Part shown: positions 16,251 through 63,682 of the stretch, in pieces
Layout of the letters: each line of letters opens with the position of its first letter
How positions within the stretch are numbered: the stretch's first letter is position 1
NCBI GenBank assembly: GCA_039194035.1
Contig: JBCCWF010000001.1
Span: forward strand, 3,970 to 67,969
Origin: Cyanobacteria bacterium P01_E01_bin.6
GTDB taxonomy: Bacteria > Cyanobacteriota > Cyanobacteriia > CAKZMO01
Length of the DNA: 64,000 nucleotides
Direction of reading: 5' to 3'
The notes under the pieces: generated by a model
Told to the model about the DNA's origin: nothing
The model's database searches: none
What the model saw: only the letters and a program-made list of their open reading frames with translations
Program-made: the position numbers and the translations under genes

Positions 16251-16258
16251 GATCGCCG

Positions 16259-26352: not shown

Positions 26353-26430
26353 TAATGATAAGGTTTGGCGATCGCGTCCTTTGCCTCAGAGACAACCTCT
26401 CTCAGCACCGTTTACATGATTGGAAAAGTT

Positions 26431-30507: not shown

Positions 30508-30518
30508 GGAGGAAACCG

Positions 30519-31001
30519 ATGGATCGTCGTAAATTTTTGAACTGGGTGGGTTTGGGAGCCTTGGCAACATCGCTTCCGGTGGCGATCGCCGCTTGCCAAT
30601 CCGAGTCATCATCCCCAGCCGATACAGCATCAGATTCTCCAGAATCATCTGCTGCGTCATCTGAGGTGGGGACGGTTCGACCCGACGGCTCATTTGTTGT
30701 GGGTACTGTTGCCGATTTAGATGAAAATGGAGTCCTCAAAGGCCGACCAGCGTTTTCCTCTGGAGCTGTTCTTGTGATTCGTGCTCCCGACGCTGCAGAT
30801 ACCCTTTATGTCGTGGACTCCCTTTGTACCCATCAGGGTTGCTCTGTTGATTGGGAATCATCAGCTTCTGAATTTGCTTGTCCGTGTCATGGCTCAACTT
30901 TTTCAGCGGATGGCAGCGTGACGACTGGTCCGGCAACGGATCCTCTGGCTACATTCCAAGCCACGATTGATGGTGAGCTTGTCTTGGTTCAACCAAGCTA
31001 G
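30519..31001 (+). CDS. Rieske [2Fe-2S] protein with Tat signal and probable lipobox (periplasmic lipoprotein)
   Basis: MDRRKFLNWVGLGALATSLPVAIAAC (twin-Arg plus lipobox-like IAAC). Ser-rich linker. Rieske boxes CTHQGC ... CPCHGS. Confidence 0.8.
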   Translation: MDRRKFLNWVGLGALATSLPVAIAACQSESSSPADTASDSPESSAASSEVGTVRPDGSFVVGTVADLDENGVLKGRPAFSSGAVLVIRAPDAADTLYVVDSLCTHQGCSVDWESSASEFACPCHGSTFSADGSVTTGPATDPLATFQATIDGELVLVQPS

Positions 31002-31011
31002 TCAGTAAATG

Positions 31012-31104
31012 GCCATTATTAAACGTGCTGTTCCAACCCCTATGCCGCCTTCGCAGTGGGCGGCATAGGGGTTGGGGATTTGGTTTCATTCTGTCCAGGT
31101 ACGT
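31012..31104. repeat. MITE-like repeat family A copy 3 (hairpin variant CCCCTATGCCGCC / GGCGGCATAGGGG)
   Basis: TTAAACGTGCTGTTCCAA...GGTTTCATTCTGTCCAGGTAC. Confidence 0.6.
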
Positions 31105-31189
31105 AGTGTGTTGTCTCGTATTGTGTCTCTTATCGAGCAGCCTATTTTCCATTCGTTGTCTCATTCAGCTCATTTATTAGCCGTTCATC

Positions 31190-31522
31190 ATGGATGATAA
31201 AAAACAGCTTTTAGCTCAAACAATGGCGTTGTTAATGTCAACAACACCTGAAACAACACTGGGTCGATTTTTGAATTTTTGCCTTGCTACGAAAGTTGAA
31301 ACGGCGATCGCCCACAAGACTCCCTTTGAAATAGCTGAAGAATTAATGGAGCATCCTGAAAAACTCTCCCAATGGATCTCTGAAACAATTGATGGCGATG
31401 ATGATTATACAGTTGATGAAATGGTTGCCCTTTCAGATATGCACATCCAAAATCCTCATACTTTCATGGCTCAATTAATAGAAGAATTGAATCAAATTCA
31501 GTTGGACGACGTAAATCCTTAA
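31190..31522 (+). CDS. hypothetical acidic protein
   Basis: ORF only. Confidence 0.3.
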   Translation: MDDKKQLLAQTMALLMSTTPETTLGRFLNFCLATKVETAIAHKTPFEIAEELMEHPEKLSQWISETIDGDDDYTVDEMVALSDMHIQNPHTFMAQLIEELNQIQLDDVNP

Positions 31523-31650
31523 ATCACTGTTCAATTACTTAGGTAATGAGAGCTTTCTACTTGCTCCCCATCAATCATGCGGCGATGCCAGGATGCTTTC
31601 CTAAAGCGACCTTGTAGATGCGTATTCTTTTTACTTGTGATTTTTCATTG

Positions 31651-31690
31651 AGCGATCGCCATAAACAATTAAATGTTTGTGGCGATCGCT
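31651..31690. promoter_or_regulatory. near-perfect palindrome built around two HIP1 sites (AGCGATCGCCATAAACAATTAAATGTTTGTGGCGATCGCT), ~300 nt upstream of the globin gene
   Basis: Seen in the sequence. Candidate operator. Confidence 0.3.
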
Positions 31691-31979
31691 TTCTTCCTAT
31701 TGGTTAAAGGGAAAGGCATGTTATGTCAAAAAGGTGAGAAATGATTAAAGATCTGACATCGATTCGCATCGATGCGGTTTATGCAACTCGTGCAAGCAAG
31801 TTCTGCATGACCTGCTGGTATTTGTATCAGAAAATGCAAAACAGCTCATTTTTTTTTCGTAATCTCTCATCTTGATAGCAGTGTTTTTCATCCATACACT
31901 TGCCAGAAAAGCATCTTTTATTTGCGTGAAATTTGCCTCAAAAAAGTGCTTCTCTATGTGTCGCCAAGGAGTCTAGGTC

Positions 31980-33014
31980 ATGTCTCTTCAAGTTGAACTT
32001 CTCGAAACAAGTTTCGAGAAAGTTAAGCCCCATGCTAATGAATTCGTTACGAGTTTTTATGACAATTTGTTCGCTGACTACCCTGCAGCAAAACCCCTGT
32101 TTGAGCACACCGATATGCCCAAACAAATACAGCAGCTTAAGGGGGGGCTCGTCATGGTGGTGGAGAATCTGCGCAACCCTGAAGTGCTCACCAAAGCGCT
32201 TGGTGGACTCGGCGCTCGCCATGTCAAGTATGGTGCGCTGCCTGACCATTACCCCCTAGTCGGCAACAGTCTGCTCAAAACCTTTGATCAGTACCTCAAG
32301 GAAGACTGGACGCCCGAGGTTAAGCAGGCTTGGGTTGACGCCTACGGCGCGATCACCGCGCTGATGCTCGAAGGCGCTGATTACTCTGAGGAACAGGTGG
32401 ATCTCTCTGCGGCTCCCCCTGCGACAGCCGCAGCGGCTGTCGACGAACCTGCCGAAGAGTCAGGCGGGTTGAAGGTTGAACTGTTAGAAGAAAGTTTTGG
32501 CAAGGTTGCGCCCCAGGCCGACGAATTTGTGGCAAGCTTCTACGACAATCTGTTCACCGACTATCCGGCATCCAAGCCACTGTTTGAGCATACCGATATG
32601 CCCAAGCAAATGCAGCAGCTCAAGGGTGGTTTGGTCATGGTGATTCAAAATCTGCGCAAGCCTGAGGTGCTCAGCAAGGCTCTGGGAGGGCTGGGTGCAC
32701 GACACGTAAAATATGGTGCGTTGCCAGAGCACTATCCACTCGTTGGGAACAGCCTGCTCAAGACATTTGGTCAGTATCTCAAAGAAGATTGGACCCCTGA
32801 GGTGAAGGGCGCGTGGGTCGATGCCTATGGTGCCATTACTGCGCTCATGTTGGAAGGAGCTGATTATTCCAAGGAAGACGTTCAGCTTGAGACTCCAGTT
32901 GCTGCGGTTGCCACTGCTGCTCCGCAGGAAGATGACGGGTCCAATGTTGCGCCTATTGTCGGTGGTCTTGTGGGTGGCGGCATTCTAATTGCTCTTTTGC
33001 TTATTCTTCTTTAA
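31980..33014 (+). CDS. tandem two-domain globin (bacterial haemoglobin-like) with C-terminal hydrophobic membrane anchor
   Basis: Two ~150-aa repeats ~80% identical to each other. Each resembles Vitreoscilla Hb (FYDNLFADYPAAKPLFEHTDM ... LGARHVKYGALPDHYPLVGNSLLKTF ... AWVDAYGAITALML). C-terminal tail PIVGGLVGGGILIALLLILL. Confidence 0.7.
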   Translation: MSLQVELLETSFEKVKPHANEFVTSFYDNLFADYPAAKPLFEHTDMPKQIQQLKGGLVMVVENLRNPEVLTKALGGLGARHVKYGALPDHYPLVGNSLLKTFDQYLKEDWTPEVKQAWVDAYGAITALMLEGADYSEEQVDLSAAPPATAAAAVDEPAEESGGLKVELLEESFGKVAPQADEFVASFYDNLFTDYPASKPLFEHTDMPKQMQQLKGGLVMVIQNLRKPEVLSKALGGLGARHVKYGALPEHYPLVGNSLLKTFGQYLKEDWTPEVKGAWVDAYGAITALMLEGADYSKEDVQLETPVAAVATAAPQEDDGSNVAPIVGGLVGGGILIALLLILL

Positions 33015-33031
33015 GACAACAGTGATAAGTT

Positions 33032-33685
33032 ATGGCGTTCAATTTTGGAAGAATGCTTAGACGAAAATCGTTCTTCAGTCTTCAAACGGCCATTATTGCT
33101 GCTGGCATTATTTTACTGGTTGGGCTTGTTGGGGTCTTCGCGCTGGAAACGGATCAGCAGACGATCTTCTTACCTGGTGAAACATCTGAAGGCCATTTTT
33201 TGTTTGAAGCATCCTGTGCATCCTGTCATGAGGGGTTTAAGCCGGTGACGAACGAGACATGCATGCGTTGTCATGAAGCCGAAATGGCGGACGACAAGCA
33301 TGGCCCCAAGAAGTTTCGTGATCCTCGTTGGGCTGCTGACCTCGAAAAGCTTGAAGTGTTGACCTGTACAACTTGCCACAACGAACATGTGCATATGTTT
33401 GGGCGGGGTGTTCATCTTCAGCCAGATTTATGTATGGCTTGTCATCAGGGCATCATTGAGGGCGATATGCAGAGCCATGACGGATTTACTCCTGATGGCT
33501 GCTGGACAGCAGGGTGCCATAACTTCCACGATCACCGTTCGATTTCCACTGGGTTCCTCGCTGACACGCTCGATCAGCCTCCGATGTTGCCTGTTCAGGA
33601 GCTGCCAATCCTGGACGTGATAACAACACTGGACTCAGCACCCGACGCTGATTTGTGGGATGAGTTTTTAGGAGGTGAATCATGA
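33032..33685 (+). CDS. membrane-anchored pentaheme c-type cytochrome (four CxxCH + one CX4CH)
   Basis: N-terminal TM IIAAGIILLVGLVGVFAL. Heme motifs CASCHE, CMRCHE, CTTCHN, CMACHQ and CWTAGCH. Confidence 0.7.
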   Translation: MAFNFGRMLRRKSFFSLQTAIIAAGIILLVGLVGVFALETDQQTIFLPGETSEGHFLFEASCASCHEGFKPVTNETCMRCHEAEMADDKHGPKKFRDPRWAADLEKLEVLTCTTCHNEHVHMFGRGVHLQPDLCMACHQGIIEGDMQSHDGFTPDGCWTAGCHNFHDHRSISTGFLADTLDQPPMLPVQELPILDVITTLDSAPDADLWDEFLGGES

Positions 33686-34485
33686 GGCGATCGCTCGTTC
33701 TCTTGGTTGCCATCCTGATGGGATTGGTCGGATATATGCTGGGACATCCACAGCCAGTCTTCGCTCATGCGTCTGAGGCTGACCTTCAGGAGATTCAAAC
33801 ACTCTGGGAAGGCAGTGTTCATGCTCTGGCTGATGTGAATTGCTCAAGTTGTCATCAGCAGGATGAGACGAATGCATTTATTGCTCATCCTGATCATGAA
33901 AGCTGTCAATCCTGTCATGACGCACAGGTCGATACTTTCTTACTCGGGAAACACGGGATCCGGTTGTTCGAAGGGATGAGTCCACTGACTCCTGCCATGG
34001 CTCGATTGCCGATGAAGGCTGACGCGCACAATCGCCAAATGACCTGCAATACTTGCCATGATGTTCATTCGGTCAATACCGTGCAAGCCTCTGTTGACTC
34101 GTGTCTGACCTGCCATAACGATACACACTCGTTGAACTATGAAAATTCCAGACACGCTGAGCTGTTTATGGCGGATCAAGGCTTGCCTCGCCCGTCAAGC
34201 CAGGCCGTCAGTTGTTCGACCTGCCATATGCCCCGCCAAGATTTGGGTAGCCCGAGCAGCCCCCAAGTTGTGGTAAATCACAACAACACGTTTACCCTAT
34301 TACCGCGCGATCGCATGGTCATTGAAGTCTGTATGAACTGCCATGGCGTTGAGTATAGCTACAACAGTATTTTTGACGATGATTTGGTAGAGGCAAATTT
34401 CGACAAGCCTCCTAGCCTATCGCTAGAGACCTTTGACTTGGTGCGTACCTTTGAAAAACAGCGTACCAGCCAGGATAGCGAATAA
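33682..34485 (+). CDS. periplasmic hexaheme c-type cytochrome
   Basis: Signal peptide. CSSCH, CQSCH, CNTCH, CLTCH, CSTCH, CMNCH. Start overlaps the upstream stop (ATGA), indicating translational coupling. Confidence 0.75.
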   Translation: MRRSLVLLVAILMGLVGYMLGHPQPVFAHASEADLQEIQTLWEGSVHALADVNCSSCHQQDETNAFIAHPDHESCQSCHDAQVDTFLLGKHGIRLFEGMSPLTPAMARLPMKADAHNRQMTCNTCHDVHSVNTVQASVDSCLTCHNDTHSLNYENSRHAELFMADQGLPRPSSQAVSCSTCHMPRQDLGSPSSPQVVVNHNNTFTLLPRDRMVIEVCMNCHGVEYSYNSIFDDDLVEANFDKPPSLSLETFDLVRTFEKQRTSQDSE

Positions 34486-37380: not shown

Positions 37381-37494
37381 AAATGGCGTGGTTGTCCTCC
37401 GACGGAGGCGGGAGACAACCAACAAAATACGCAAGATAAATGGCGTAGTTGCCCTCCGACGAAGGCGGGAGACAACCAACAAAATACGCAAAAT
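37381..37494. repeat. two tandem copies of a 57-bp unit, each with a nested GC hairpin (GTTGTCCTCCGACGGAGGCGGGAGACAAC)
   Basis: Direct reading. The units differ at 5 positions. Confidence 0.8.
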
Positions 37495-37529
37495 AGGTGA
37501 GTTTTAGCTTATGAAGCAACTCGCTATAA

Positions 37530-37618
37530 TTGAACGTACCCTCCCAAATCCTGCGCTGCCTGCGCAGCGGACAGCACAGGATTTGAGTTTTTGTTTCTAA
37601 TTACGCCCAGTTACTGAA
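37530..37618. repeat. MITE-like repeat family A copy 4 (hairpin variant CCTGCGCTGCC / GGACAGCACAGG)
   Basis: ATAATTGAACGTACCCTCCCAAATCCTG...GGATTTGAGTTTTTGTTTCTAATTACGCCCAGTTACTGAAC. Confidence 0.6.
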
Positions 37619-41014: not shown

Positions 41015-41127
41015 CTGGTAAGTACCTGGACGTCATTAAAACCCAAAATCCAAATCCTGTACCGCCCGCGCAGCGGGCGGTACAGGATTTGGAAGAATAC
41101 GTTTAATTATGGCTATCTACTTATTGT
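41015..41127. repeat. MITE-like repeat family A copy 5 (inverted; hairpin variant CCTGTACCGCC / GGCGGTACAGG)
   Basis: GTAAGTACCTGGACGTCATTAAAACCCAAAATCC...ACGTTTAATTATGGCTATCTACTTA. Confidence 0.7.
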
Positions 41128-41544: not shown

Positions 41545-41673
41545 GGGTCACATTCTCCTGAGCGAACAGCTAATGGATAAACATGAAATCTTCAGGCTTA
41601 TCTATCTAGCTTTCACCCTAGCGAATTCTCAAGCGAATGGGAAGTTTGGCCTCACGTGTGCCGTCATTGGCGA

Positions 41674-41756
41674 TAAGTAACTAGCCATCATTAAACGTAA
41701 CCTTCCAAATCCTGCCAGGATTTGGATTTTTGGTTTTAATGATGTCCAGGTACTTA
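41674..41756. repeat. MITE-like repeat family A copy 6 (hairpin truncated)
   Basis: GATAAGTAACTAGCCATCATTAAACGTAACCTTCCAAATCCTGCCAGGATTTGGATTTTTGGTTTTAATGATGTCCAGGTACTTA. Confidence 0.65.
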
Positions 41757-42187: not shown

Positions 42188-42235
42188 CAATTCACCGCCA
42201 GCACTATAGCAGTCCGCACGTCGGTTAGGACATAT

Positions 42236-42276
42236 ATTTTTGTGGAAAGCCGCGCGGAGCGCGGCTTTCCACAAAA
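42236..42276. terminator. perfect ~19-bp-stem hairpin (TTTTTGTGGAAAGCCGCGC-GGA-GCGCGGCTTTCCACAAAAA) flanked by T and A runs; candidate bidirectional terminator
   Basis: Seen in the sequence between convergent genes. Confidence 0.6.
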
Positions 42277-42307
42277 ATATTGGTTCAACTTAAGCGCGGA
42301 GCGCTAT

Positions 42308-42405
42308 AGAGGTACAAGACTTGGCAACGTTTACAGAACAATGAGAGTTTGGGGTGCGCAACGCACACCCCAAACTCTCATTTCTTCATTTCAATTTTGA
42401 GACGT
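42308..42405. repeat. MITE-like repeat family B copy 1 (GACTTGGCAACGTTTACAGA ... TTGAGACGTTTGCCAAGTC)
   Basis: ~19-bp terminal inverted repeats plus an internal GC hairpin. Confidence 0.7.
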
Positions 42406-42503
42406 TTGCCAAGTCGTGCAGAAATGAGACGTCCCCTTGTGGATGAGCTTCCAGTTTCTCGCGATGGGCTGAACGTGAATGGATTAGGGCATGTCAGCCA
42501 TTA

Positions 42504-43133
42504 CTAGGGCACAGAAATCATAACCGTTGAACCAACAATTTCCCCTTGATTGATGAATTCCTCATGGCCATTTGCGTTGAGCGTCACAGTAATGGTATTC
42601 ATCCCCGGCTCTAGGGAGGGCACATGGTGCCAATGACTGTAGATACGCATAATTTTTTCACCATTAATGTAGAGATGCGCGTGACCCTCATTCATTGAGC
42701 TTTGCCCATTCACCTGTTCAGGAGCAAAGGCAAAGTTTTCTGTTACCAGATGAAGATTCCAGCCATTGATGGGGTCGTCATTTGCAATCAGTTGTACAGA
42801 CGGGATGGCTGATGCACTAGAGACATCAATGGAACCATGATGGTGCCCACCACCATGATCAGCCGCATTCCCATGGGAATCTCCGTGAGAATCGCTATGA
42901 GGAACTTCCTGCTCTGCGTGTTGCTCATGGTGATGCCCCTCTCCTTCCGCAATCATCTCTGCTCGATTAGTCTGGACATGAGGCTCGACGTTACTCTCCG
43001 ACGGCAGTGACGAATCTATGGTTGGCTGGATGGCCACAGCGGAGGTCACGGCGCTGATTGAGAGCCCAACAAAAATTTGGATGAACAGCAGAGTCGGCCT
43101 GACGTATTTAGAATTCATGGTATTTCTTTTCAA
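42504..43133 (-). CDS. His-rich secreted or periplasmic metal-binding protein
   Basis: Signal peptide. HGDSHGNAADHGGGHHHGS tract. C-terminal beta-rich domain. Confidence 0.4.
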   Translation of the reverse strand: MKRNTMNSKYVRPTLLFIQIFVGLSISAVTSAVAIQPTIDSSLPSESNVEPHVQTNRAEMIAEGEGHHHEQHAEQEVPHSDSHGDSHGNAADHGGGHHHGSIDVSSASAIPSVQLIANDDPINGWNLHLVTENFAFAPEQVNGQSSMNEGHAHLYINGEKIMRIYSHWHHVPSLEPGMNTITVTLNANGHEEFINQGEIVGSTVMISVP

Positions 43134-43171
43134 ATCTTCCTCAAAAAACTAGCAATCAGATTCAGTAACAC

Positions 43172-43269
43172 GACGTGGCAACGTTTACAAAGAAATAAGG
43201 GATTGGGTCGCGCCACGCGCGACCCAATCCCTTATTTCTTCGTTGCAATTTTGAGACGTTTGCCAAGTC
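43172..43269. repeat. MITE-like repeat family B copy 2
   Basis: GACGTGGCAACGTTTACAAAGAAATAAGGGATTGGGTCGCGCCACGCGCGACCCAATCCCTTATTTCTTCGTTGCAATTTTGAGACGTTTGCCAAGTC. Confidence 0.7.
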
Positions 43270-43424
43270 ATGTCAGTAAGTCTGGTTTCTGTCGATATGC
43301 GACAACGCTAAAACGGGTTCCCATCGTCTTAGGAATAGGCATGCAATAGAACCAAAACGTCGTTTGGTGGTAGCGGCGCAACCATCACCACTAAATTATC
43401 TCGGAGTCTTTTGATGTTTATTCC

Positions 43425-44519
43425 TTAGCCAATCGCAGACAGATGGGTATGCAATTGGCGAATTAGCTTGATTGTGTTGTGCTGAGCGATGGATGCGCCC
43501 TGTTCTTCGAATCGATGAGCCGCCGCTTTCAGATCGGCGATCGCCCTTTCTGACTGGCCGAGCTGACGATAGAGCATGCCTCGATTGAAGTAGGCTTGGG
43601 CAAATCCAGGATCACGTGCTAGGGCAGCAGTGAAATCTTGCCGCGCTTGCCACAAGTGCCCCTCAAGATGATAGGCACAAGCGCGATTATAGTAAATCTG
43701 GGCTGTTTCATCATTAAATCGAAGCGCCATACTTAAATCGGCGATCGCCCCTACTGCATTGCCTTGCTGCAGTCGAGTAATTCCCCTATCGCTATAGATA
43801 TTGGCAAGGGTCAGATCATTCGCATGATTGGCATGACGAAGGGCCTGGTTGAAATCTTCAATGGCTTGGGCATGCTGTCCTTGAATAGCCTCGGCTAGCC
43901 CCCGGTTGTAACGGGCTTGGACATCATACGGACGTTGATTGAGAACCGCCGTAAAATCTCGAACAGCTTTCAATTGGTTGCCCTGACGATAGAGTGCGAG
44001 TCCTCGATTCAGCCGTGCGTTCATATGATCAGGCTGTAGCACAATGGCTTTGTCGCAGTCGGCGATCGCCTCGTGATAATGACTCATCTGAAGAAAGATT
44101 AGGCATCGATTCGCATAGGCATCAGTTAATTTCGCATCGGACTGAATTGCCTTTGAAAAAGCAATCAGAGCCGCAGGATAGTCTCCTTCCTGAGCGAATC
44201 GGATGCCTGTTTGAAACGATGATGGTAAGGCTGGCAACTCATGCTTAATGGGGGCGTTATCGATTGTCGTCACCCTCGCCATTGGCGATGCAACACTTTC
44301 CCCTGAATTTACCCCCACAAGCATCAATATCAGGAGGCTAATGATCACGTTGTATGCCATGGAGCACAGCCGACGTCGCCCAGGATTGTTGGCGAGTCCA
44401 AATTGGGACTCGCCAAACCCAAACACCGAGCTAATACGACTCAGGCACGTCATGCCTTCCGAGGTCAAGAATTTACAGGAGCCAAGCAATTTGTCTGCAA
44501 TCTTATCGTTAACCCTCAT
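43425..44519 (-). CDS. TPR-repeat protein (membrane-anchored or secreted)
   Basis: Repeated 34-aa TPR units (AYANRCLIFLQMSHYHEAIADCDKAIVLQPDH ..., YFNRGMLYRQLGQSERAIADLKAA). An internal Met followed by a hydrophobic segment is the likely start. Confidence 0.6.
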   Translation of the reverse strand: MRVNDKIADKLLGSCKFLTSEGMTCLSRISSVFGFGESQFGLANNPGRRRLCSMAYNVIISLLILMLVGVNSGESVASPMARVTTIDNAPIKHELPALPSSFQTGIRFAQEGDYPAALIAFSKAIQSDAKLTDAYANRCLIFLQMSHYHEAIADCDKAIVLQPDHMNARLNRGLALYRQGNQLKAVRDFTAVLNQRPYDVQARYNRGLAEAIQGQHAQAIEDFNQALRHANHANDLTLANIYSDRGITRLQQGNAVGAIADLSMALRFNDETAQIYYNRACAYHLEGHLWQARQDFTAALARDPGFAQAYFNRGMLYRQLGQSERAIADLKAAAHRFEEQGASIAQHNTIKLIRQLHTHLSAIG

Positions 44520-44596
44520 ACATATCCTAGAGACGTTGACTCAGCAAACCTGAACACCAATTCCGAACACCAGTAGGAATCAAAGCAACGAGTGAG

Positions 44597-44943
44597 TTAC
44601 CAGCCTTTCTCCGCTTGATCGAGAACATAAGCCGCAACATCTTCAATATCTTGATCGGATAGCTTACTGCCAAACGCTGGCATTGCCATTTTTCCGTTGA
44701 TCACCTGAGTTTTGATAGCCTCAAGAGATGCCATCTCGTATTTTTCCAAGTCACCTTTGCTCAACGTCTTAGCTGCATTGACGTAATTATTTCCACCTGC
44801 ATGGCATGCATTACAGTTGGCCGTGAAGACTCTGGCACCATTGGCTAAATCAGCTGCAAACGCAGGTGCCGCGCCAAGACTGCTGACCACCATGACCATG
44901 GCTAATGCAAATCCAATAACAAGACGACCCATAGATTTCATAG
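44597..44943 (-). CDS. petJ: cytochrome c6
   Basis: Signal peptide [29 protein letters not shown], then [23 protein letters not shown] ... [11 protein letters not shown], the canonical cyt c6 sequence with CxxCH and Met ligand. Confidence 0.8.
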
Positions 44944-45030
44944 ATACTCCTTCACAAAAAAATGCTAGACCATCACACGTCCCCTGCATGCCCATACTGA
45001 AGAAGACCACGCGTCTCGTCAAAAGACAGC

Positions 45031-45570
45031 GTGTCAATTATTACGACATATAACGAGGCTTCTGTGGGTAGTGCAGTGAGGTCAAATCTGCACGTTAGAC
45101 TACACTCAACCATTATTGCTTTTACCCATTATTTGCTTTTATTTTGTATGGTTCCTTTGCCAGACCATCGCCCCAACCAACTCTCTTTAGGGCCGCTAGA
45201 ATCAGAAGTTTTAGCCATTATTTGGGAACAGGCACCGATTACTGCGACGTTAATTCACGATCACCTCACGCGTGATCCGAATCGTGAGTTGACCTACCCG
45301 TCGGTGATGACGGTGCTTCGCCGCATTGAGAAGAAAGGCTGGGTCACCTGTGAACGAAAAGACCGATCGCTCTGGTGGAAGGCGCGGATGTCTCGCCACG
45401 AAGCAGACATGGTTTTGGCCCATCAACAGCTCCAGAATTTTCTCTCCGTTGGAAATCCCGATATTGTGGCAGCCTTTGCCGATAGCCTCGATTATGCAAG
45501 CCTGGAACAAATTGAGGCGATCGCCCAACGATTGCGAGACGTTCGCCAAGCTCAGCAGCAGGAGGAGTGA
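45031..45570 (+). CDS. petR: BlaI/MecI/CopY-family transcriptional repressor (PetR-like)
   Basis: [27 protein letters not shown] ... [17 protein letters not shown] is the penicillinase-repressor winged-helix signature. The true start is probably an internal Met. Confidence 0.65.
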
Positions 45571-45573
45571 GCC

Positions 45574-46452
45574 ATGCATGTATGGATAATTCTAGTCAGT
45601 CTCATGCTTGCTGTAGGGATACGATGGTTGCTATCGCTGCCCAATGAGGCCCAATCAACGGCCCCCCTGTCACACAACGCCTATGCTCAACAATGGCGTC
45701 GTGTATTAGGTGCTTTTTTGATTCCTCCGGTGCTGCTGCTGCTTACTGCTGTCACCATGCTTCAAATGGGGCCAACGGGAGTCATGCTCGGTGTGCCAGT
45801 CGGACACATCGGTTTCATTGTTGGCCTTGGATTTATCAGCAGTGCAGCAATCATTGCTGCCTATTTGGGAATCCAAGGATGGCGATCGCTCCGCCAGATT
45901 CGCACCCATTCCAATGTTGCGATTTACGGTTACTCAGGTCGAGTCTTGAATACGGAGATGCCTTTTGCCGGACAAGTTGGGTTCTGGAACCCAGAACTGG
46001 TCGTCAGTCAGGGCTTATTAGATGTCCTTACACCGGAACAAATGGCCACCGTCTTGACCCACGAAGACGCTCATCAGCACTATCACGACACCTTTTGGTT
46101 CTTCTGGTTGGGATGGTTGCGAACACTCACCTGCTGGCTTCCCCAGACTCGTGCATTGTGGCAAGAATTGCTATTGCTTCGAGAAATTCGCGCAGATTGG
46201 TGGGCAACTCAGGTTCAGGGTATCGATCCGATTCTGCTGGCGGAATCATTGCTACAGGTTGTTCGACTCTCGGCCCAGTCTCCACTTCCCAACTGCGCTA
46301 CGTTCAATCTCCTCTCATCCACTCATCGCCTAGATGTCCGCATTAATGCTCTTCTCGCATCAGGTGATTGGGCTGAGTCAACACCGACGATTATGTCATG
46401 GCAGTTTGGTATTGCCCTTTTACCCCTAGTGGCGATCGCCCTTCACCACTAA
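45574..46452 (+). CDS. petP: BlaR1-like M56-family membrane metalloprotease (PetP-like)
   Basis: Polytopic N-terminus. HExxH-type motif VLTHEDAHQHYHD. 4-nt gap from the repressor gene. Confidence 0.65.
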   Translation: MHVWIILVSLMLAVGIRWLLSLPNEAQSTAPLSHNAYAQQWRRVLGAFLIPPVLLLLTAVTMLQMGPTGVMLGVPVGHIGFIVGLGFISSAAIIAAYLGIQGWRSLRQIRTHSNVAIYGYSGRVLNTEMPFAGQVGFWNPELVVSQGLLDVLTPEQMATVLTHEDAHQHYHDTFWFFWLGWLRTLTCWLPQTRALWQELLLLREIRADWWATQVQGIDPILLAESLLQVVRLSAQSPLPNCATFNLLSSTHRLDVRINALLASGDWAESTPTIMSWQFGIALLPLVAIALHH

Positions 46453-46492
46453 CTCAAAGGCATCAGATCAAAATTGCAATGAAGAAATGAGA

Positions 46493-46536
46493 ATTTAGGG
46501 TTTTGGTTTTAATGACGCCCAGGTATTGAGTAAGCC
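46493..46536. repeat. MITE family A fragment (3' half only: GGGTTTTGGTTTTAATGACGCCCAGGTATTGAGTAAG)
   Basis: Matches the conserved right arm of family A. Confidence 0.5.
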
Positions 46537-47517
46537 TCTTTAAAACAATAAATGCATTATCTAAACCGTAACTTTATCTATTCAATGCCTTGCCTGGAAA
46601 TGGTTTTGTGGTTGCTCTAGTTTAAGGCAACGTTCTTCCATGAACTTTCCATGAAGTAGGCAACCTATTTGATTCTTCAATGGTCATACTGATAAAGTGA
46701 GGGAGCAAGAACACTCGGGTATTTTTGTTAGGTCGTTACTTTGATTTGACAATTCTTGGGTGATAATTATGTCTCTCATTCATCAGAAGTCGAGAGGATT
46801 TGGTCTACCGAATATAAGGTGTTAACGGTCATTGCGTGGCATCAAATTAGTCAATGGTTAGTTGATTGATTTAACGATTCATTTAGATTCATCAGTTATT
46901 GAGTGTACTGCCATCAACGAATATTTCTATTGATAGTCACTATCCTTGCAAGGGCGATCGCGTTAGTAGAAGAAGATGGCAATACGTTCCGATTCATCAG
47001 TAGCTGAGATAGTTTGTTGATTTAGACGATTCTTTTGGATGGAGAAAAATTTCTTCCATCTAGGGAAACATTCATGAATGATTAGCGACCGTTGACGCGA
47101 CTCATCAACAGAGATTCGCCGCCATCGGTACTCGATTTTGCTGCTTCTTTTGGCAACCAATAGCTATTGAAATGCTGTTGATAGAGTGTTCTAGAAACTC
47201 TTGTGACCTGTCTATCATACTGATTGAATAGATAAGCCAGTCTGCCTTGAGAAACATGGCTTTACCTGTCAATGAATTAACGCCTTAATGTCACGAAGTA
47301 GACGTGTTCTGTTCGGCTTATTACGTTCGTCCAAGAGTATTGTGTTTCCTTTCCCCTTCTAAATGGGAGAGTGTTCTGTATTTATTCATGACCTAAACAA
47401 TGTTATCCACTGCATGACTGAATGCAGTAGGTAAGACTAGTTCACTCACTGTGATTTTCGAGGCTTTTATTGATTAGAAGCCACAGATTCTAGTACAAAG
47501 TATTTTGGAGAAATATC

Positions 47518-49683
47518 ATGTTTGAAGCGCAATCAAGCAGTCAGTTTGAACAAGAGCTAGAGATTAAGAATAATGTTCTGTTCGGAGCTTTCGATGACGA
47601 CGACGACGATGACGATGATGATGATGACGACGACGATAACTCAACGGTAATCATTGAACGAGATAAGAATATCTTTGGATTCACCAGTGTCTTTATAGAA
47701 GGTCGCAGTAGTGTTGTCAGCAAAGAATTTACAACCTTCGGTGGATTAACGACCTCTGCGAATCTCTTTGTAGCCAAGCAATATGATTCCTCTGTGACCA
47801 TTTCAATGACGAGTGCCTCTGGAATTACTGACTCAATTGGCTATGTAGATGACGATGGCAATCTGATGCCAACGAAGGAAAATCCACTTGCTGGCAAGAA
47901 ATCAGGTGATATCTCTCAGCTTGATATTGAGAAATCGCTTAAGTTCAACCATGAATTAGTTCTCGTGAGCCTTACCCGACAACACATTGTTCAACTGCTT
48001 GAATATGCGCTGTCGACTGGTGATGCTAATCGTGCAGAGTCGTTGTTTCCTCAGGTGACTGGGCTGTCCTTCAGCTATGACCTTACGATGCCAGTAGGTA
48101 AGCGCGTGCGATCGCTTTCTGTGACCGATGAAGCAGGAAAAATACTCGACATTATTGTCAAGAAAGGTACCTTCCAGGGAAAGCAAAACAAGTCTTACCG
48201 GGTTGTAACCACCAATTTCTTGGCAAATGGTGGGGATGGATATTTGTTTCCGCAGCTTGCCTCGAATCGCATTAACCTCACAGAAGTCAATATCCAAAAT
48301 CAAACCAACATTGTAAAGTTCGCAAAATTTGGAACTGAGCAAAATGCATTGGCTGAATATTTAGCTCGTACGTATCGCACAACCCCATTCAAGACTCGAG
48401 AAACTACGATTGATCAAGACATTCGTATCCAAAATCTGAGCTTCCGATCAGATACGGTCATCGATATCAATGTGAACCAGTTTTTCCTCGTGGGCGGGAA
48501 GAAGAAAGATAAGATATTGGGTGGTAATCTAGACGATATCTTGAAAGGACAGGGAGGCGATGATCGGGTCGTGGGTCGTGGTGGTCACGACGATCTCTAT
48601 GGCAATAACGGGAACGACAAAGTCAAAGGAGGCTCCGGAAATGACAACATTTATGGAGGAAAAGGCAACGATAGACTCGTTGGTAGTAAAGGGGATGACA
48701 TCATCGATGGAGGTAAGGGCAATGACGTCATCATTGGCTCAAAAGGTGATGATACTTTGTTTGGGGGAGATGGGGATGACAGGATTTTAGGCGGTTCAGG
48801 TGACGATGATATGGATGGTGGCAAAGGCGATGATCGTCTCTCAGGAGGGCGTGGCAATGACGTGATCGCTGGCGGTGATGGAGATGATTTGCTTGTAGGA
48901 GGCCAGGGGGATGATGTTCTGCGAGGCGGCAAGGGAGATGACATCTTACTTGCTACTGGCGGTAATACGCTCTTAGATGGCGGAACAGGTGATGATTTAC
49001 TGGTTGGAGGGAAAGGGAACGATACGTTTGTGATTGCTGGTGCCGGAACTAAAACCATCCGTGAGTTTGGCTCAAATGGAAGCGATCGCCTCTTCTTTCA
49101 GGATTATTCGTTTGATGAACTATCCATTGAGCAATCGGGTAATGACACCGTCATTCAATTTGAGGACAACATTCTGGCGGTGCTTCTGAATGTTCAAGTT
49201 GAGACGATTGACGATTCACTCATTAACTCCCCTGACTCTAATACGGATCTATCTGAGCGTTTAGGAAAACCAAAATCTCTGACATTTGAGTATGTCGGGG
49301 GGACTGACCTTGTGACCGGGCAAGATTCTAAAAAAGCAACCGTTAATGGAGATGGCGATGAAGATGATGATTTAGCTTACTTTGTTGTTTCCGATCGGAA
49401 TAAAGTGTCTGATGTTCTAGACAACAAAGGCTCTACTTATTTCGAGGGTGAAGTCAACCTCGGGGATGAGTTTACGGCTGATATTGACATTGCAGGAACT
49501 AAAAAGTTCAAATCCAAGACGTTCATCTATCTTTTTGAGGATGCCAACGCATTCCAAGATGGAAAGCAACCTCTTCAATCTTTGCAATATCATACCTCCG
49601 GCTCAGAACCCATGAAGCTTGGGGACATCATCGGCGGTGTTGAATTGACCGCATATACCGGAGACTTAGGCAGCGCGAGTTAA
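47518..49683 (+). CDS. secreted RTX-type calcium-binding protein with N-terminal poly-Asp tract, 5'-nucleotidase C-terminal-like domain and haemolysin-type Ca-binding nonapeptide repeats
   Basis: D15 run (47596-47640). NFLANGGDGYLFPQ (5_nucleotid_C-like). More than 15 GGxGxDxLxG repeats (GGKGNDRLVGSKGDDIIDGGKGNDVIIG...). No N-terminal signal peptide, consistent with type I secretion. Confidence 0.7.
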   Translation: MFEAQSSSQFEQELEIKNNVLFGAFDDDDDDDDDDDDDDDNSTVIIERDKNIFGFTSVFIEGRSSVVSKEFTTFGGLTTSANLFVAKQYDSSVTISMTSASGITDSIGYVDDDGNLMPTKENPLAGKKSGDISQLDIEKSLKFNHELVLVSLTRQHIVQLLEYALSTGDANRAESLFPQVTGLSFSYDLTMPVGKRVRSLSVTDEAGKILDIIVKKGTFQGKQNKSYRVVTTNFLANGGDGYLFPQLASNRINLTEVNIQNQTNIVKFAKFGTEQNALAEYLARTYRTTPFKTRETTIDQDIRIQNLSFRSDTVIDINVNQFFLVGGKKKDKILGGNLDDILKGQGGDDRVVGRGGHDDLYGNNGNDKVKGGSGNDNIYGGKGNDRLVGSKGDDIIDGGKGNDVIIGSKGDDTLFGGDGDDRILGGSGDDDMDGGKGDDRLSGGRGNDVIAGGDGDDLLVGGQGDDVLRGGKGDDILLATGGNTLLDGGTGDDLLVGGKGNDTFVIAGAGTKTIREFGSNGSDRLFFQDYSFDELSIEQSGNDTVIQFEDNILAVLLNVQVETIDDSLINSPDSNTDLSERLGKPKSLTFEYVGGTDLVTGQDSKKATVNGDGDEDDDLAYFVVSDRNKVSDVLDNKGSTYFEGEVNLGDEFTADIDIAGTKKFKSKTFIYLFEDANAFQDGKQPLQSLQYHTSGSEPMKLGDIIGGVELTAYTGDLGSAS

Positions 49684-49860
49684 CTTAAAATTGATAAAGG
49701 CTCGTTACATTGCAATGGGCTTTTATCAATATCTTACCCGTGTCTTATTCATGCTTCTCGTGGTCATAGTCTGAAGAGAGAGATGTTTATGGGGATATTA
49801 CGTGTCCTCGTGAACATGTCTCTTGTGTCAACTAACGGATCTACTGACAGCTAAGTAAGT

Positions 49861-49945
49861 GGCCACAAAACCCATAAAACCCTTCGCCGTCCACTGCTCG
49901 GGTGGCGAAGGGTTGTGAATGTGGATCCTAATTGTGCCGAGGTAC
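49861..49945. repeat. divergent MITE family A-like copy (hairpin CCCTTCGCCGTCCACTGCTCGGGTGGCGAAGGG)
   Basis: Flanks resemble AAAACCCATAAAACC and GAGGTACTTATAG of family A. Lower confidence. Confidence 0.35.
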
Positions 49946-50168
49946 TTATAGCGTTTACCCTATGTCACGAACGCCTATATCACGAACGAGAGATGGCAGC
50001 GCCTTTTCTCCAGACTGCTGTGCATACACATCGTGTTTCATATACGCAAGATCGAAGAACCCTTTCTTAGTTCTCTTTGATGACTTCTTTCACCATTTCT
50101 GGGGATGGATGACGGGTTCTTTGCGTCAAAGAATGAATTAAAAATTTATGGCTATGGTTATTAAAGCT

Positions 50169-50265
50169 GACTTGGCAACGTTTGCAGAGGACTAGGGTTT
50201 GGAGCGCGCAACGCACGCCCCAAACCCTTAATTCTTCGTTGCCATTGTGAGAGGTTTGCCAAGTC
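50169..50265. repeat. MITE-like repeat family B copy 3
   Basis: GACTTGGCAACGTTTGCAGAGGACTAGGGTTTGGAGCGCGCAACGCACGCCCCAAACCCTTAATTCTTCGTTGCCATTGTGAGAGGTTTGCCAAGTC. Confidence 0.7.
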
Positions 50266-50422
50266 ATGTATTACCCCCGCGACTTGCTATGGAGAAATGA
50301 GAGGAGGGCTAGCTTCCTTTGACTAGGGTAATAAGCTGTTAGCGATTCAATTGCATGGCTGTACCCCTAATCCGGCAGGGTACAGCTACCAAAATACTCA
50401 AAACACGTGAATTTTAAGCTTA

Positions 50423-51526
50423 TCAAGCTGGGCAACGATGCTGATAAGCCTGCCAGGTTAAGCCTAAGAGGCAGATGGTGGCGATCGCCAATGTAATGAC
50501 ACCTATCGGACGATTGATCAACAACAGTGCAAAACTACTTGCCCAAGCGGTTAACGCATAAATGAGCAACACCGTTAGGCGGTGGGGAATGCCTGCAGAA
50601 AGTAGCCGATGGTGGAGGTGGCGCTGATCGGCTCTAAAGGGGGATTGTCCGTGTAAAAGGCGAGTTGCAATGACCGCGGACATGTCGACCAGCGGAACCG
50701 CTAACACAAGTGCAGGGAGGGCGATCGCCGTTACGGTTGCTGTTTTTGCTAGCCCCAGAATGCTAACACTCGCTAGTAAAAAGCCAATCAGATAAGACCC
50801 ACCATCTCCCATGAAAATAGTGGCTGGGTTGAAGTTGTAATAGAGAAATCCAATGAGGCTACCAATGAGTGGTAGTAATATGATGACCATAAATGGCTGA
50901 TGGGTTTGGATGCCAATGATGAGCATGACGGTGGCCGCGATGCCAGACACCCCAGCGGCAAGACCATCTAATCCATCTGTCCAATTAATTGCATTGACCA
51001 CTCCAGTGAGCCACAGAATCGTAATTGGCAAACTCAACCACTCTAATTGCACGATGCCGATGTTGGGAATCGATACAAAGTCAATGCGGACTCCCAATCC
51101 CCAAACCATGATGGCGATCGCACTTTGCATCCACAGGCGATGAAATGCCGAGAGATTGATCAAATCATCGGACAGGCCAATCAAAAAAAAGCTTGTGCTT
51201 CCGAGTAAAATACCCCACATGGGTGTCGGTAACTCAGTGAGCAACAGAGACTGACTCCACGCTGCCATTCCAAATCCAGCCAGCGTTCCAACTGCGATGG
51301 CAATGCCTCCGAGGCGCACGATGGGGCGCTGATGTACTTTTCGGGTGGACGGCCGATCAACTTGATTATAGCGTTGAGCAGTTCGATTAATGGCCGGAAT
51401 CGTCAGCAGGACAATCCCGAGGGAGCAGAGTGGAGCCAGCAAAATCCACAGGGAGATGGACGGACGCGATTCAAACAGAGGGGAAGACGAAAGCAGACTG
51501 AAACCAATGTCTGGAAGGAGTGGCAT
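50423..51526 (-). CDS. UDP-HexNAc:undecaprenyl-phosphate HexNAc-1-phosphate transferase (MraY/WecA/WbpL GT4 family), initiating glycosyltransferase
   Basis: 10-11 TM helices with conserved DD and NxxNxxDGxDGL motifs (NAINWTDGLDGLAAG). Confidence 0.7.
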   Translation of the reverse strand: MPLLPDIGFSLLSSSPLFESRPSISLWILLAPLCSLGIVLLTIPAINRTAQRYNQVDRPSTRKVHQRPIVRLGGIAIAVGTLAGFGMAAWSQSLLLTELPTPMWGILLGSTSFFLIGLSDDLINLSAFHRLWMQSAIAIMVWGLGVRIDFVSIPNIGIVQLEWLSLPITILWLTGVVNAINWTDGLDGLAAGVSGIAATVMLIIGIQTHQPFMVIILLPLIGSLIGFLYYNFNPATIFMGDGGSYLIGFLLASVSILGLAKTATVTAIALPALVLAVPLVDMSAVIATRLLHGQSPFRADQRHLHHRLLSAGIPHRLTVLLIYALTAWASSFALLLINRPIGVITLAIATICLLGLTWQAYQHRCPA

Positions 51527-51650
51527 GGTTCAAATGCATAGGTTGAGAGAACTGATGAATCGAGTCGGTTTAAAGGATGGGCACGCTTCATTCTTGTTGC
51601 AGAAGGCTTTGGAGACGGGTGATTATGTGACTGGCCTGCAACTATCGACA

Positions 51651-53192
51651 TCACGGTCGATTGGCTAATGTAAGCGTGTTGGCATACGACGTAAGTCGTT
51701 CCGACTGAACAACACCCTCAAACAAAACACTGTGATACTGACGAGCAATATGGTCAGGAGTGAAATGGTGCTGAAGATAGAGTCGTCCACTTTGCCCCAT
51801 TTGTTGTGCAATCGCTGGGGTTGAATGGAGCAGTCGAATAAAATCTGCCAGTCCTTGACTATCTCCACTCGTGAAGGTTGCTCCACATTCTGCATCGTGG
51901 ATCAGAGACGTCAGATAAGACTGGCGATCGCAAATGGCTGCAATCGGTCGTTGGGAGGCAAGTGCAGAATACAACTTACTGGGAGCGACAAGACCTTCTG
52001 CTTCTGGGGTGACACTGACCAGAGAGAGGTCGCAAGCCGTTAACGAAAAGGGCAGGTCAGCCTTATCTTGGTAGGGTAAAAAGAGGCCATTTTTCAATCC
52101 CAGAGCGTCGGCCTGCTCAATGAGATGCGTGCGCTTTGCTCCCCCTCCAATGAACACAAATTGGATGGGGTCATCCTTGAGCAATTGCATGGTCTCCAAA
52201 ATGGTTTGGGCATCATGGCACCGCCCCATATTCCCGGAATACATGACAGTAAATGGCGTGACTAAATTATGCTTGTGAGCGAACCAGTTTTCGTCCTTCT
52301 TCCGAGGAACAATGACCTCAGGATTTGCCCAACTGTGGATGATCGAAATTTTATCTGAGACCTCTGGGCAGTGGGCGATCACTCGTTCTTTCATCGATGA
52401 ACTAAGCACAATGATACTATCGGCCCGATTCCAGACTTGGCGATTGATCCAGCGCCAGAGTCGAGACACCCAATGGTCCTCATGAATGACGCTCAACTGA
52501 ATGGCAACATCAGGATACAGATCGTAGATAAGACAAACGTAAGACATGCCCAGAAACATCTTGGCGAGATATCCCAATACGGGGAGAAATGGGGGGGCCG
52601 TCGTAATTAAAATCTGATCCGTATGATGAGCGTTTCGAATCAGGTGGAGTGCTGCTCGGAGGCAATAAAATAGTCCATTTACCGCTTTACCCCGAATTCG
52701 GGAGGGCCAGAGACTCGCAAGGCGCGATCGCCGAATACTCACATGGCCATGGGTTTCTCGACTGGGTGCATCGGTGGATTGAAAGGCATAGGCAGGTTGT
52801 CCTGCAAAGACACGAATCCTGACCCCTTGCTGGCTAAGGTTCGTTACCAATTCGCTGAGCAATTGACCGGTGGGTGCATAGTCAGGCGTGAAGAACTGAT
52901 TGAGAATAATGAGCCTCGGAGAAACAGTACGTGAGGTGGTGTTGGCGTCTTCTGACTGAGGAGTAGATCGCTGGCCAAACAACGCACTGTGCTGTTTGTT
53001 GAAGTGGAGTCTTGGAGCTGATCGCACGAGGAATAGACCTCCAGAATAAGTGAGCACAGAGGCCATCGGATCAACAAGAGCACGAGCAACAATAATGCAC
53101 ATGTCTGCTAGTCCTGGACTCAAGGTTCTGGAGATGCACCGAGGTAGCCATGATGATTGAGCCAGATAGGGCATTGCCCTAGTGCTCAACAA
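51651..53192 (-). CDS. glycosyltransferase family 4 (GT-B, group 1); N-terminal start uncertain
   Basis: PRLIILNQFFTPDYAPTG (GT4 N-terminal domain). C-terminal E-x7-E region. Confidence 0.6.
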   Translation of the reverse strand: MLSTRAMPYLAQSSWLPRCISRTLSPGLADMCIIVARALVDPMASVLTYSGGLFLVRSAPRLHFNKQHSALFGQRSTPQSEDANTTSRTVSPRLIILNQFFTPDYAPTGQLLSELVTNLSQQGVRIRVFAGQPAYAFQSTDAPSRETHGHVSIRRSRLASLWPSRIRGKAVNGLFYCLRAALHLIRNAHHTDQILITTAPPFLPVLGYLAKMFLGMSYVCLIYDLYPDVAIQLSVIHEDHWVSRLWRWINRQVWNRADSIIVLSSSMKERVIAHCPEVSDKISIIHSWANPEVIVPRKKDENWFAHKHNLVTPFTVMYSGNMGRCHDAQTILETMQLLKDDPIQFVFIGGGAKRTHLIEQADALGLKNGLFLPYQDKADLPFSLTACDLSLVSVTPEAEGLVAPSKLYSALASQRPIAAICDRQSYLTSLIHDAECGATFTSGDSQGLADFIRLLHSTPAIAQQMGQSGRLYLQHHFTPDHIARQYHSVLFEGVVQSERLTSYANTLTLANRP

Positions 53193-53652
53193 TCTATTGG
53201 AAAGTGAAAGATAACGTTGCCTGGAGAAGAAATGTGACCCGATGGTGTTTGCGTTCAGGGAACCTAGATCTCAGTGCTTTTACACCTGCTTTCTATACAC
53301 GTTTCACACGCTAAGAGTGTTATACAAGCCTTTTACTTAGTGTCAGAACAAAATAGTGTCAGAACAAAATAAATTTATTTGCTCATATGGCAGGGATAAC
53401 GTTGGTACATAAAAGCCAATCAGAATCAGGCTGACTCATCGTTGATTAGTTCGCAATGGCCTATTGGAATCAGCACACGTTGAGCATACATTTATACTTT
53501 CAATGATCCGCAAGGTAGTCAGAAGAAAACGGGGTCAAACAATATAAATTTGCTGTAAAAAAAAAGAACGTCCTTGTGGAATTTACGTATAGTTATCCGG
53601 AATCAGAAACCCCACGTTCGATCAGCTGATGTGGAAAATGTTGCTGCTGTGA

Positions 53653-54261
53653 CTACATTCGTAATTGAGGATGGAGGCTAGCTCCAGTGTGACCTGTCAC
53701 TATCCAAAGAATCGATCGCCCAATATCCCGTGCAACCTTAATGAGAGATTCATTGGGTTGCTGGGAGGGGATGATGACGGGGGTAGTGGTGATTCCCCGA
53801 CTGCCGAAGACGAAAAAGGCGATCGCCCGTGCGCGGCGCATATGGAAATCTGAGGTGATGAGGTAAAGGTGGTGAATGTCGCGATCGCGAAAGTCTTTGA
53901 CGAGGGAGGTGAAGTTGGTGACGGTGTCGATAGCTCGGCGATCGATGTTGATGCGGTTATCGGCGATCGCGGCGCGTCGAAAAATGTCTTTGGCCTGTTG
54001 GGTCGATGCGCCAGAGGACACCCAAATATCTAAAGTTGGATGTTGTTGGGCAAAGAGTGCAGTGAATTCTTCCCGACCGGAGCCTCCTCCAAGGGTAAAG
54101 ATGACTTGAGGAATTGGAGATCGCATCTGAGCAAGGACTAAGCGAATTGGAATGAAACTAATGAGAAGGACGAGGATACTTGTGGTAAAAGCAACCCACA
54201 TAGTGCGATAGTTTTTTGAGCGGAGATACATCGAGATTCGGCTGATAAAGATTTTCAGCAT
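53653..54261 (-). CDS. DUF218 / YdcF-ElyC-SanA-like envelope biogenesis protein
   Basis: N-terminal TM. Conserved LGGGSGREEF...WVSSGAS pattern of DUF218. Confidence 0.5.
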   Translation of the reverse strand: MLKIFISRISMYLRSKNYRTMWVAFTTSILVLLISFIPIRLVLAQMRSPIPQVIFTLGGGSGREEFTALFAQQHPTLDIWVSSGASTQQAKDIFRRAAIADNRINIDRRAIDTVTNFTSLVKDFRDRDIHHLYLITSDFHMRRARAIAFFVFGSRGITTTPVIIPSQQPNESLIKVARDIGRSILWIVTGHTGASLHPQLRM

Positions 54262-63670: not shown

Positions 63671-63682
63671 AATTATGGCGTA

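Follow-up and report, generated by a model that had tools for sequence, protein, structure and literature searches.

Family B is a short, hairpin-forming repeat present in four copies in a stretch of 64,000 nucleotides from Cyanobacteria bacterium P01_E01_bin.6 (GenBank assembly GCA_039194035.1, contig JBCCWF010000001.1, positions 3,970 to 67,969 of the forward strand), which we refer to as the window and whose own numbering is used throughout. The host is a marine cyanobacterium of a Leptolyngbya-like lineage, and the composition of the window, with 48% G+C and 96 HIP1 sites (GCGATCGC), is cyanobacterial. Copies c1 (42315..42418, core GAC...GTC at 42318-42415), c2 (43169..43272, core 43172-43269), which is the best preserved, and c3 (50166..50268, core 50169-50265) share one orientation, on the plus strand. 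The fourth copy, c4 (~26400-26498, plus strand), is degenerate. c1 is located in a spacer between two convergent genes, one for a SnoaL-like protein (end 42187) and the other for a histidine-rich (His-rich) protein (end 42504). c2 has the His-rich gene (start 43118) on one side and a gene for a TPR protein (stop 43425) on the other, and c3 lies in the convergent spacer 49684-50422. Thus, two of the four copies occupy spacers of convergent genes. Profile searches with nhmmer recover c1-c3 with E = 6e-32 to 5e-31 and covariance-model searches with E = 1e-22 to 5e-27; the corresponding values for c4 are an E of 2e-7 and 32.8 bits (E 9e-6). Together the copies span about 24 kb, and neither type of search found a fifth copy within the 64 kb. 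The 15-mer GACTTGGCAACGTTT is confined to family B sites in a window scan allowing up to one mismatch. An earlier annotation made from the letters alone, here called the sequence-only reading, had claimed three homologous copies, and all three are borne out, in the same orientation and with profile and covariance E-values far beyond chance. Its coordinates hold for c2 and c3 but not for c1, which it placed at 42308-42405, 10 bp to the left of the correct 42318-42415.

The repeat unit is 98-104 bp long, and 104 bp when bounded as CAn...nTG. It has no coding capacity: open reading frames (ORFs) running across it are spurious, and a search of 5.8 billion proteins found no homologue of a 66-aa ORF lying over c3. 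In its size (below ~300 bp), in being non-coding and in having terminal inverted repeats, family B has the make-up of a MITE (miniature inverted-repeat transposable element). The ends pair with each other in an outer helix, in which GACTTGGCAA-CGT pairs with ACGtTTGCCAAGTC, i.e. ACG(t)TTGCCAAGTC, with 13 paired positions and a single T bulged out. The helix extends to CAn...nTG, reaching about 16 bp, in c1, c2 and a full copy from a related genome (L018, see below). The consensus of the conserved inverted ends is therefore CAnGACTTGGCAA[A]CGT, 13-16 bp long, so that the terminal inverted repeats proposed earlier do exist, at less than the ~19 bp given for them. Across four copies the outer helix is 91% paired. 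An asymmetric internal loop, with ~9 nt on its left side and ~19 nt on its right, separates it from an inner stem of 20 bp, or up to 27 bp in c2, which is G+C-rich close to a 3-nt loop. The inner stem is formed by 42340-42359 and 42363-42382 in c1 (loop AAC, one C.A mismatch), by 43187-43213 and 43217-43243 in c2 (27-nt arms, 96% complementary, loop CAC), by 50194-50209 and 50213-50228 in c3 (two mismatches) and by 26423-26447 and 26451-26475 in c4, where it includes an 18-bp perfect run. No family B copy without the inner hairpin was seen. Folded as single-stranded DNA, c1 and c2 reach -20.9 to -38 kcal/mol, with z = -6 to -11 relative to shuffled sequences, the input for c1 being its first 88 nt only (42318-42405); the fold of c3 is weaker (z = -2.9 and -4.7). 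A search of the ends for an outward promoter gave a single weak 9/12 match to the consensus, partly in the flank of c2. The orientation of family B relative to adjacent genes is inconsistent across six copies.

The two parts of the element evolve differently. c1 and c2 differ at one of the first 18 nt and at none of the last 24 nt, versus 17 differences in the intervening 56 nt. Five of the 20 stem pairs are altered on both arms with pairing kept, and one position is mismatched. Comparisons of c4 with c1 and with c2 each yield five compensated pairs and one or two uncompensated changes. The stem of c3 is partly decayed, with 16 contiguous pairs containing two mismatches, both of them G.T wobbles on the minus strand, and with the outer four positions mostly unpaired. 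In an alignment of c1, c2, c3 and the L018 copy, 87.9% of cells hold standard pairs. Two-sided pair changes number nine in this alignment, compared with 3.5 +/- 1.4 after shuffling; none of 500 shuffles reaches nine, and sliding the partner by 1-3 columns leaves only 0-3 such changes. The signal of arm co-variation is clear despite the small sample, and the compensated variation of the inner hairpin described in the sequence-only reading is confirmed by the pair counts of c1/c2 and c4. The interior of family B is thus a long hairpin that drifts faster than the ends and whose arms change together: the ends are under sequence constraint, the stem under pairing constraint only. The low variation of the outer helix fits recognition by a protein better than a purely structural role. 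c4 has a perfect stem and ends that look decayed: its left end is substituted (CTCTCAGCACCGTTTACA) and its right arm carries two deletions (…TTTCTTCGT--AATGAGAC--AGTC). This single case hints at maintenance of the stem in situ, although c4 may instead belong to a subfamily with different ends.

Neighbourhoods of homologues were used to look for family B in related genomes, whose loci are denoted here by L numbers. In L018, from the metagenome-assembled genome (MAG) GCA_964465285.1, the copy at 4120-4222 (CACGACTTGGCGAG...CTGCCAAGTCGTG) is full-length and has a compensated stem of its own (nhmmer E 1e-13, covariance model 94 bits); two half copies accompany it, a left one at 912-944 and a right one at 5466-5517, at the contig end. 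The full copy of L013 (JGI 3300040801), at 8252-8359, is degenerate, and two halves lie at 5045-5088 and 10757-10808; L023, the closest relative, retains a fragment at 2431-2498. Profile and covariance-model searches of the homologue neighbourhoods L011, L014-17, L019-22 and L025 found no copy. Within the same conserved gene block, different spacers are occupied. The order in the window is TPR, c2, His-rich, c1, SnoaL; in L013 a copy is found between the BlaI-like and cytochrome genes, with fragments after the His-rich gene, and in L018 family B follows a tRNA-Ser gene downstream of the His-rich gene. Because diverged copies sit at different positions of a shared gene neighbourhood, family B is a dispersed, fairly old and lineage-restricted repeat that inserted independently. 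Local duplication alone, the outcome that would have spoken against a mobile family, is refuted by these diverged copies at non-orthologous positions in three related assemblies. The His-rich protein and the MraY-family transferase of the window match proteins of the P01_E01_bin.6 MAG at 100% identity. The relatives are not close: the MraY-family transferase reaches 78% amino-acid identity, followed by values of at most 57%, and the best match of the His-rich protein is 58%. A Logan contig from SRR22824306, derived from the same organism, is 100% identical to window positions 48050-54256.

Two further sequence features were observed in these relatives. The core of family B has a relative at L013:6276-6369 (AAATGAAATGTGAGAGATGGGGTGGGC gct GCCCACCCCATCTCTCACATTTCAT; covariance model 39 bits) that consists of the hairpin only, without the family B ends, and this suggests that the core hairpin may be spread within other flanking sequences as well. 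An inverted repeat with a TGnTATA-like extended -10 element behind it, the motif GTGTGCTGAACCAA(C)TG(TG)CACACTGCTATA, abuts family B on the left side in L013 (8222-8252) and on the right side in L018 (4220-4250). A weaker look-alike of this motif occurs in the window at 42200-42232 (minus strand), directly after the SnoaL stop codon. The motif could represent a further repeat family or a promoter/operator module.

Flanking sequences were compared with the element boundaries placed at CAn...nTG. c2 is bordered by a putative target-site duplication, TCAGTAA, at 43162..43168 and 43273..43279, matching at 7/7 positions; an exact repeat of at least 7 nt in any of 49 registers has a probability of 0.0045 for random pairs of window sites. 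In the register of c2, the flanks of c3, TATTAAA (50159-50165) and TATTACC (50269-50275), match at 5/7 positions (null P 0.019). The possibility that TCAGTAA is a terminus of family A, another palindromic repeat of the window, was rejected, since the hidden Markov model (HMM) of family A has no match there. Duplication of ~7 bp at A/T-rich targets thus has moderate support. Examined copy by copy, as the sequence-only reading had proposed, the putative duplication is found at c2, in part at c3 and not at c1.

The flanks and ends bear on the type of enzyme that could have moved family B. A relationship to IS630/Tc1-mariner elements, one of two links suggested earlier, was rejected, because no copy has TA as the flanking dinucleotide at both ends, under either boundary definition. 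The other suggestion, an IS200/IS605-derived palindrome-associated transposable element (PATE), fares no better: family B has inverted ends and a single central hairpin, and neither Y1_Tnp nor OrfB_IS605 is found in the window. Another explanation would be a hairpin excised and re-inserted as single-stranded DNA by a Y1/HUH transposase encoded elsewhere, either IS200-like or a repetitive extragenic palindromic (REP)-associated tyrosine transposase (RAYT), with the ends serving as recognition sites. Such transposition (IS200/IS605) yields no flanking direct repeats, and the repeats at c2 (7/7) and c3 (5/7) count against it, although c1 and the full L018 copy, which lack a flanking duplication, would agree with it. 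The wider pattern is also that of REP doublets forming hairpins (REPINs), which have conserved ends and a less conserved spacer whose hairpin pairing is kept by common compensatory changes (PMC3116915). Family B shows the same combination of conserved inverted ends with a faster, compensated spacer and is likewise ~100 bp long; half copies are common in the relatives, matching the frequent REP singlets that are read as REPIN remnants, and both REPINs and RAYTs have been reported in Nostoc (PMC3116915). The ends themselves, however, are unlike REP sequences. A REPIN carries a REP stem-loop within each end and a head tagged with GTAG/CGTC, and in REPs the CGTC head is followed by an 8-9-bp stem (PMC3733652). 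The ends of family B form no short stem-loops of their own, lack the GTAG tag and pair with each other, and the minus-strand CGTC (GGCAAACGTCTC) has no 8-9-bp stem after it. In further contrast to REPINs, direct repeats flank two copies and no RAYT lies nearby. We regard movement of family B by a Y1/HUH enzyme as unlikely.

A different explanation places the hairpin in the service of the host, as a bidirectional intrinsic terminator or a stabiliser of mRNA 3' ends that is maintained by selection at each locus, its mobility being only historical. To our knowledge, cyanobacteria lack Rho. c2 resembles a terminator on both strands, with a 20-bp stem followed by a T-rich tail, and TTTCTTCnTT follows the stem of every copy on the plus strand. 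c1, c3 and c4 lie 130-490 nt downstream of plus-strand genes in that orientation, two of them between convergent genes. Two further observations would suit a transcribed structure: c4 has a perfect stem despite its decayed ends, and the mismatched stem positions of c1 and c3 form G.T wobbles, but on only one of the strands. However, the asymmetry between G.T and A.C (3 to 0 in the core stems, 5 to 2 overall) is not significant as an indicator of strand, and c1 and c3 were not scored as terminators. Nor are the positions conserved among related genomes, the same spacers being empty of family B in most of them; c2 sits within what relatives have as a compact operon, and the copy of L013 is in a divergent promoter region. 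In addition, a terminator would not need conserved outer ends, and no Rfam family matches family B: with Rfam 15 at gathering thresholds, the only match in the window is a tRNA gene (3931-4003, minus strand), and E-value mode adds only generic hairpin matches far below threshold (miRNA precursors, RAGATH-23). A primary function at the level of the host locus is therefore improbable. Just upstream of c1, 47 nt after the SnoaL-like gene, there is a separate perfect 22-bp hairpin at 42234-42280 (ATATTTTTGTGGAAAGCCGCGC gga GCGCGGCTTTCCACAAAAATAT), which is a candidate for the actual terminator of the SnoaL-like gene.

Arranged as direct repeats at a distance of 854 bp, c1 and c2 enclose just one small ORF, the His-rich gene (42504-43118, minus strand); the sequence-only reading had noted the bracketing and suggested that it could indicate MITE-mediated mobilisation of this gene. 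The encoded protein is predicted to be secreted and belongs to no Pfam or NCBIfam family. The arrangement is reminiscent of a composite transposon or, given that conserved ends with a structured and variable middle are an attC-like trait, of an integron cassette. Gene order in the relatives, conserved in seven loci that lack the repeats, is decisive here. The His-rich gene is part of a conserved block (42504-46452) that continues with genes for the TPR protein (43425-44519), cytochrome c6 PetJ (44597-45037; NCBIfam PetJ equivalog, 152 bits), a BlaI/CopY-like repressor (45031-45570) and a BlaR-like M48/M56 protease (45574-46452), the cytochrome c6 gene being divergent from the BlaR-like/BlaI-like pair. 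The order BlaR-like/BlaI-like, cytochrome c6, (TPR in some genomes), His-rich recurs in L011, which retains the convergent SnoaL gene too, and in L013, L014/L016, L018 and L025, whereas only the adjacency of the cytochrome and His-rich genes is kept in L019, L020 and L022. In the syntenic loci the His-rich protein is 48-68% identical and no repeats occur at the corresponding positions. The His-rich gene is therefore at its ancestral place, with the repeats inserted around it, and its mobilisation by family B is ruled out. An integron attC site was rejected on additional grounds, as the core sites RYYYAAC / GTTRRRY are absent from both strands of family B and no integrase is encoded in the window; c3 and c4 bracket nothing comparable. 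We consider the composite or cassette explanation refuted by synteny and leave it next to no credence. At most, the c1/c2 direct repeats could promote deletion of the His-rich gene by recombination. In Synechocystis, PetR and PetP form a copper switch for petJ (bioRxiv 10.1101/2020.07.31.226407), and the BlaR-like/BlaI-like pair of the window matches this PetP/PetR switch. The recurrent linkage to petJ suggests a copper- or metal-related role for the His-rich protein.

Taken together, we assign a probability of about 0.6 to family B, with its ~104 bp of non-coding sequence, being a non-autonomous mobile repeat of bacterial MITE type. The type and the dispersal proposed in the sequence-only reading are supported, and the evidence for target-site duplication is partial. 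A transposase encoded elsewhere in the genome would recognise the conserved inverted ends (CAnGACTTGGCAA[A]CGT) and insert the element into A/T-rich intergenic sites, probably with a duplication of ~7 bp, and copies would accumulate in spacers, where they do little harm. Retention of pairing in the stem may be explained in two ways. Either only elements competent to fold, as single strands or cruciforms, would propagate, as proposed for REPINs, or template switching during replication of the palindrome would copy a change in one arm to the other; template switching can both create and maintain perfect hairpins (PMC8794818). The observations do not discriminate between selection on folding at the level of propagation and template switching. 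Effects on the host, if any, would be incidental, in that a transcribed hairpin could terminate or stabilise transcripts.

Several observations weigh against family B being such an element. Comparison of 57 window ORFs of at least 100 aa with Pfam revealed no transposase, integrase, Y1/RAYT or OrfB_IS605, the window contains no longer element with family B ends, and such ends are also missing from two transposase-bearing loci of relatives (L019 and L025). Copies diverge from each other by 19-33% (gapless measure), which argues against recent activity. The well-preserved c1 (0/7) and the full L018 copy (1/7) have no flanking direct repeat. Insertion polymorphism was not shown, as L024, a contig of the same organism, does not differ from the window, and no empty orthologous site could be aligned, the relatives being distant (at most 78% amino-acid identity, no blastn match). 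The copy number refers to the 64-kb window, and the covariation test to four sequences only. Wider searches returned little. An exact scan for the two termini in 185,579 species genomes, with the source genome not among them, gave four matches where about two are expected by chance; all are non-cyanobacterial (Verrucomicrobia, Acidobacteria, Pasteurella, unknown) and none fits the family HMM. The 20-base pattern of the right end had six matches in 241 million metagenome records that do not include the source genome, again with none fitting the family HMM, and a scan for palindromic termini in 2.9 million viral contigs found nothing. As these scans produced only chance matches or none, family B is rare and lineage-restricted. 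No meaningful match to c1 or c2 came from blastn against 72,556 plasmids, and there was no blastn match to phages.

The closest described kinds of element are REPINs and the MITEs in which the whole element forms a hairpin, namely, ERIC, bcr1 and Nezha. ERIC/YPAL of enterobacteria, bcr1 of the Bacillus cereus group and Nezha of Anabaena/Nostoc are bacterial MITEs with compensated stems and, like family B, are ~100-170 bp long, non-coding and intergenic (PMC3184786). They share with it the terminal inverted repeats, the whole-element hairpin and lineage-restricted dispersal, their short flanking direct repeats have a possible counterpart at c2 and in part at c3, and compensated base changes like those of family B have been reported for bcr1. 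In sequence, family B resembles none of them (no Rfam, plasmid/phage blastn or pattern match). The apparent duplication of ~7 bp differs from the TA of ERIC and the 5 bp of bcr1, and Nezha is tied to an ISNpu3-like element, whereas family B has no such partner in the window. Small dispersed repeats (SDRs) and nested palindromes of Nostocaceae were reportedly described by Elhai and colleagues (2008, Genome Res 18:1484). SDRs are 21-27 nt long and have been reported only in Nostocaceae. They resemble the repeats of the window in being cyanobacterial, intergenic and hairpin-forming, with modules nested in other palindromic repeats, as in family A (see below), and differ from family B, which measures 100 bp, has inverted ends and comes from a Leptolyngbya-like lineage.

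Family B is not the only repeat in the window. Family A, a second palindromic repeat of ~105 bp, has at least nine copies (5059-5166, 21487-21591, 24061-24167, 30999-31105, 37511-37617, 41016-41123, 41671-41756, 49851-49949 and 63681-63792) and a half copy at 46491-46529. Its centre is a 22-nt G+C-rich hairpin (…CCTG TGCCGCCCGC GCA GCGGGCGGCA CAGG…), present in five copies and absent at 41671-41756, the absence indicating a palindrome nested within a palindrome. Differences between copies in the stem are largely compensated. The more abundant family A shares the mix seen in family B, i.e. MITE-like ends and duplications with REPIN-like stem evolution. A far-reaching interpretation is that the inner hairpin is required for propagation, and that families A and B represent a cyanobacterial class of hairpin-dependent mobile repeats combining REPIN-like features (conserved ends, compensated stem) with MITE-like ones (mutually pairing ends, ~7-bp duplications), and that they are mobilised by an enzyme so far unconnected with repeats of this type or have in part been domesticated as terminators in a Rho-less phylum; we consider this distinctly unlikely. 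Units of family C are 57 nt long and contain a hairpin of their own (…GGTTGTCCTCCGACGGAGGCGGGAGACAACC…); they occur as a tandem pair at 37381-37494 (93% identical) and as a third, diverged unit (65%) at 50348-50404, adjoining c3. The spacer 49684-50422 therefore holds four units, a hairpin (49783-49817), family A (49851-49949), c3 (50169-50265) and family C (50348-50404), and looks like a safe haven where repeats accumulate.

Further gene clusters are present in the window. A redox cluster at 26817-34485, unusual for a cyanobacterium, encodes ResB-like and CcsA-like cytochrome c assembly proteins (26817-30507), a Rieske protein (30519-31001), a 344-aa protein with two globin domains (31980-33014), whose gene contains an internal 300-nt repeat of 76% identity, and two multihaem c-type cytochromes of the MtrC/c3 type (33032-34485). 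Phage-tail-like baseplate genes (gp25-like, Baseplate_J, Tail_P2_I) at 14647-20195 on the minus strand probably represent a contractile injection system or tailocin-like locus. Adjacent ORFs for a C5-cytosine and an MT-A70-type DNA methyltransferase are located at 765-2389, and an HNH endonuclease ORF at 21613-22071.

Family B looks like an otherwise ordinary miniature mobile element, mildly unusual in combining MITE-like ends and duplications with REPIN-like stem evolution. Repeats of this kind have been undescribed in the Leptolyngbya-like lineage. For annotation, they account for oversized intergenic spacers and spurious small ORFs in the MAG, and the His-rich gene is to be viewed as a member of the conserved petRP-petJ neighbourhood and not as mobile cargo. 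More generally, given a complete genome, family B could help to tell selection on folding from self-correction of palindromes as the source of 'compensatory' changes in mobile hairpins.

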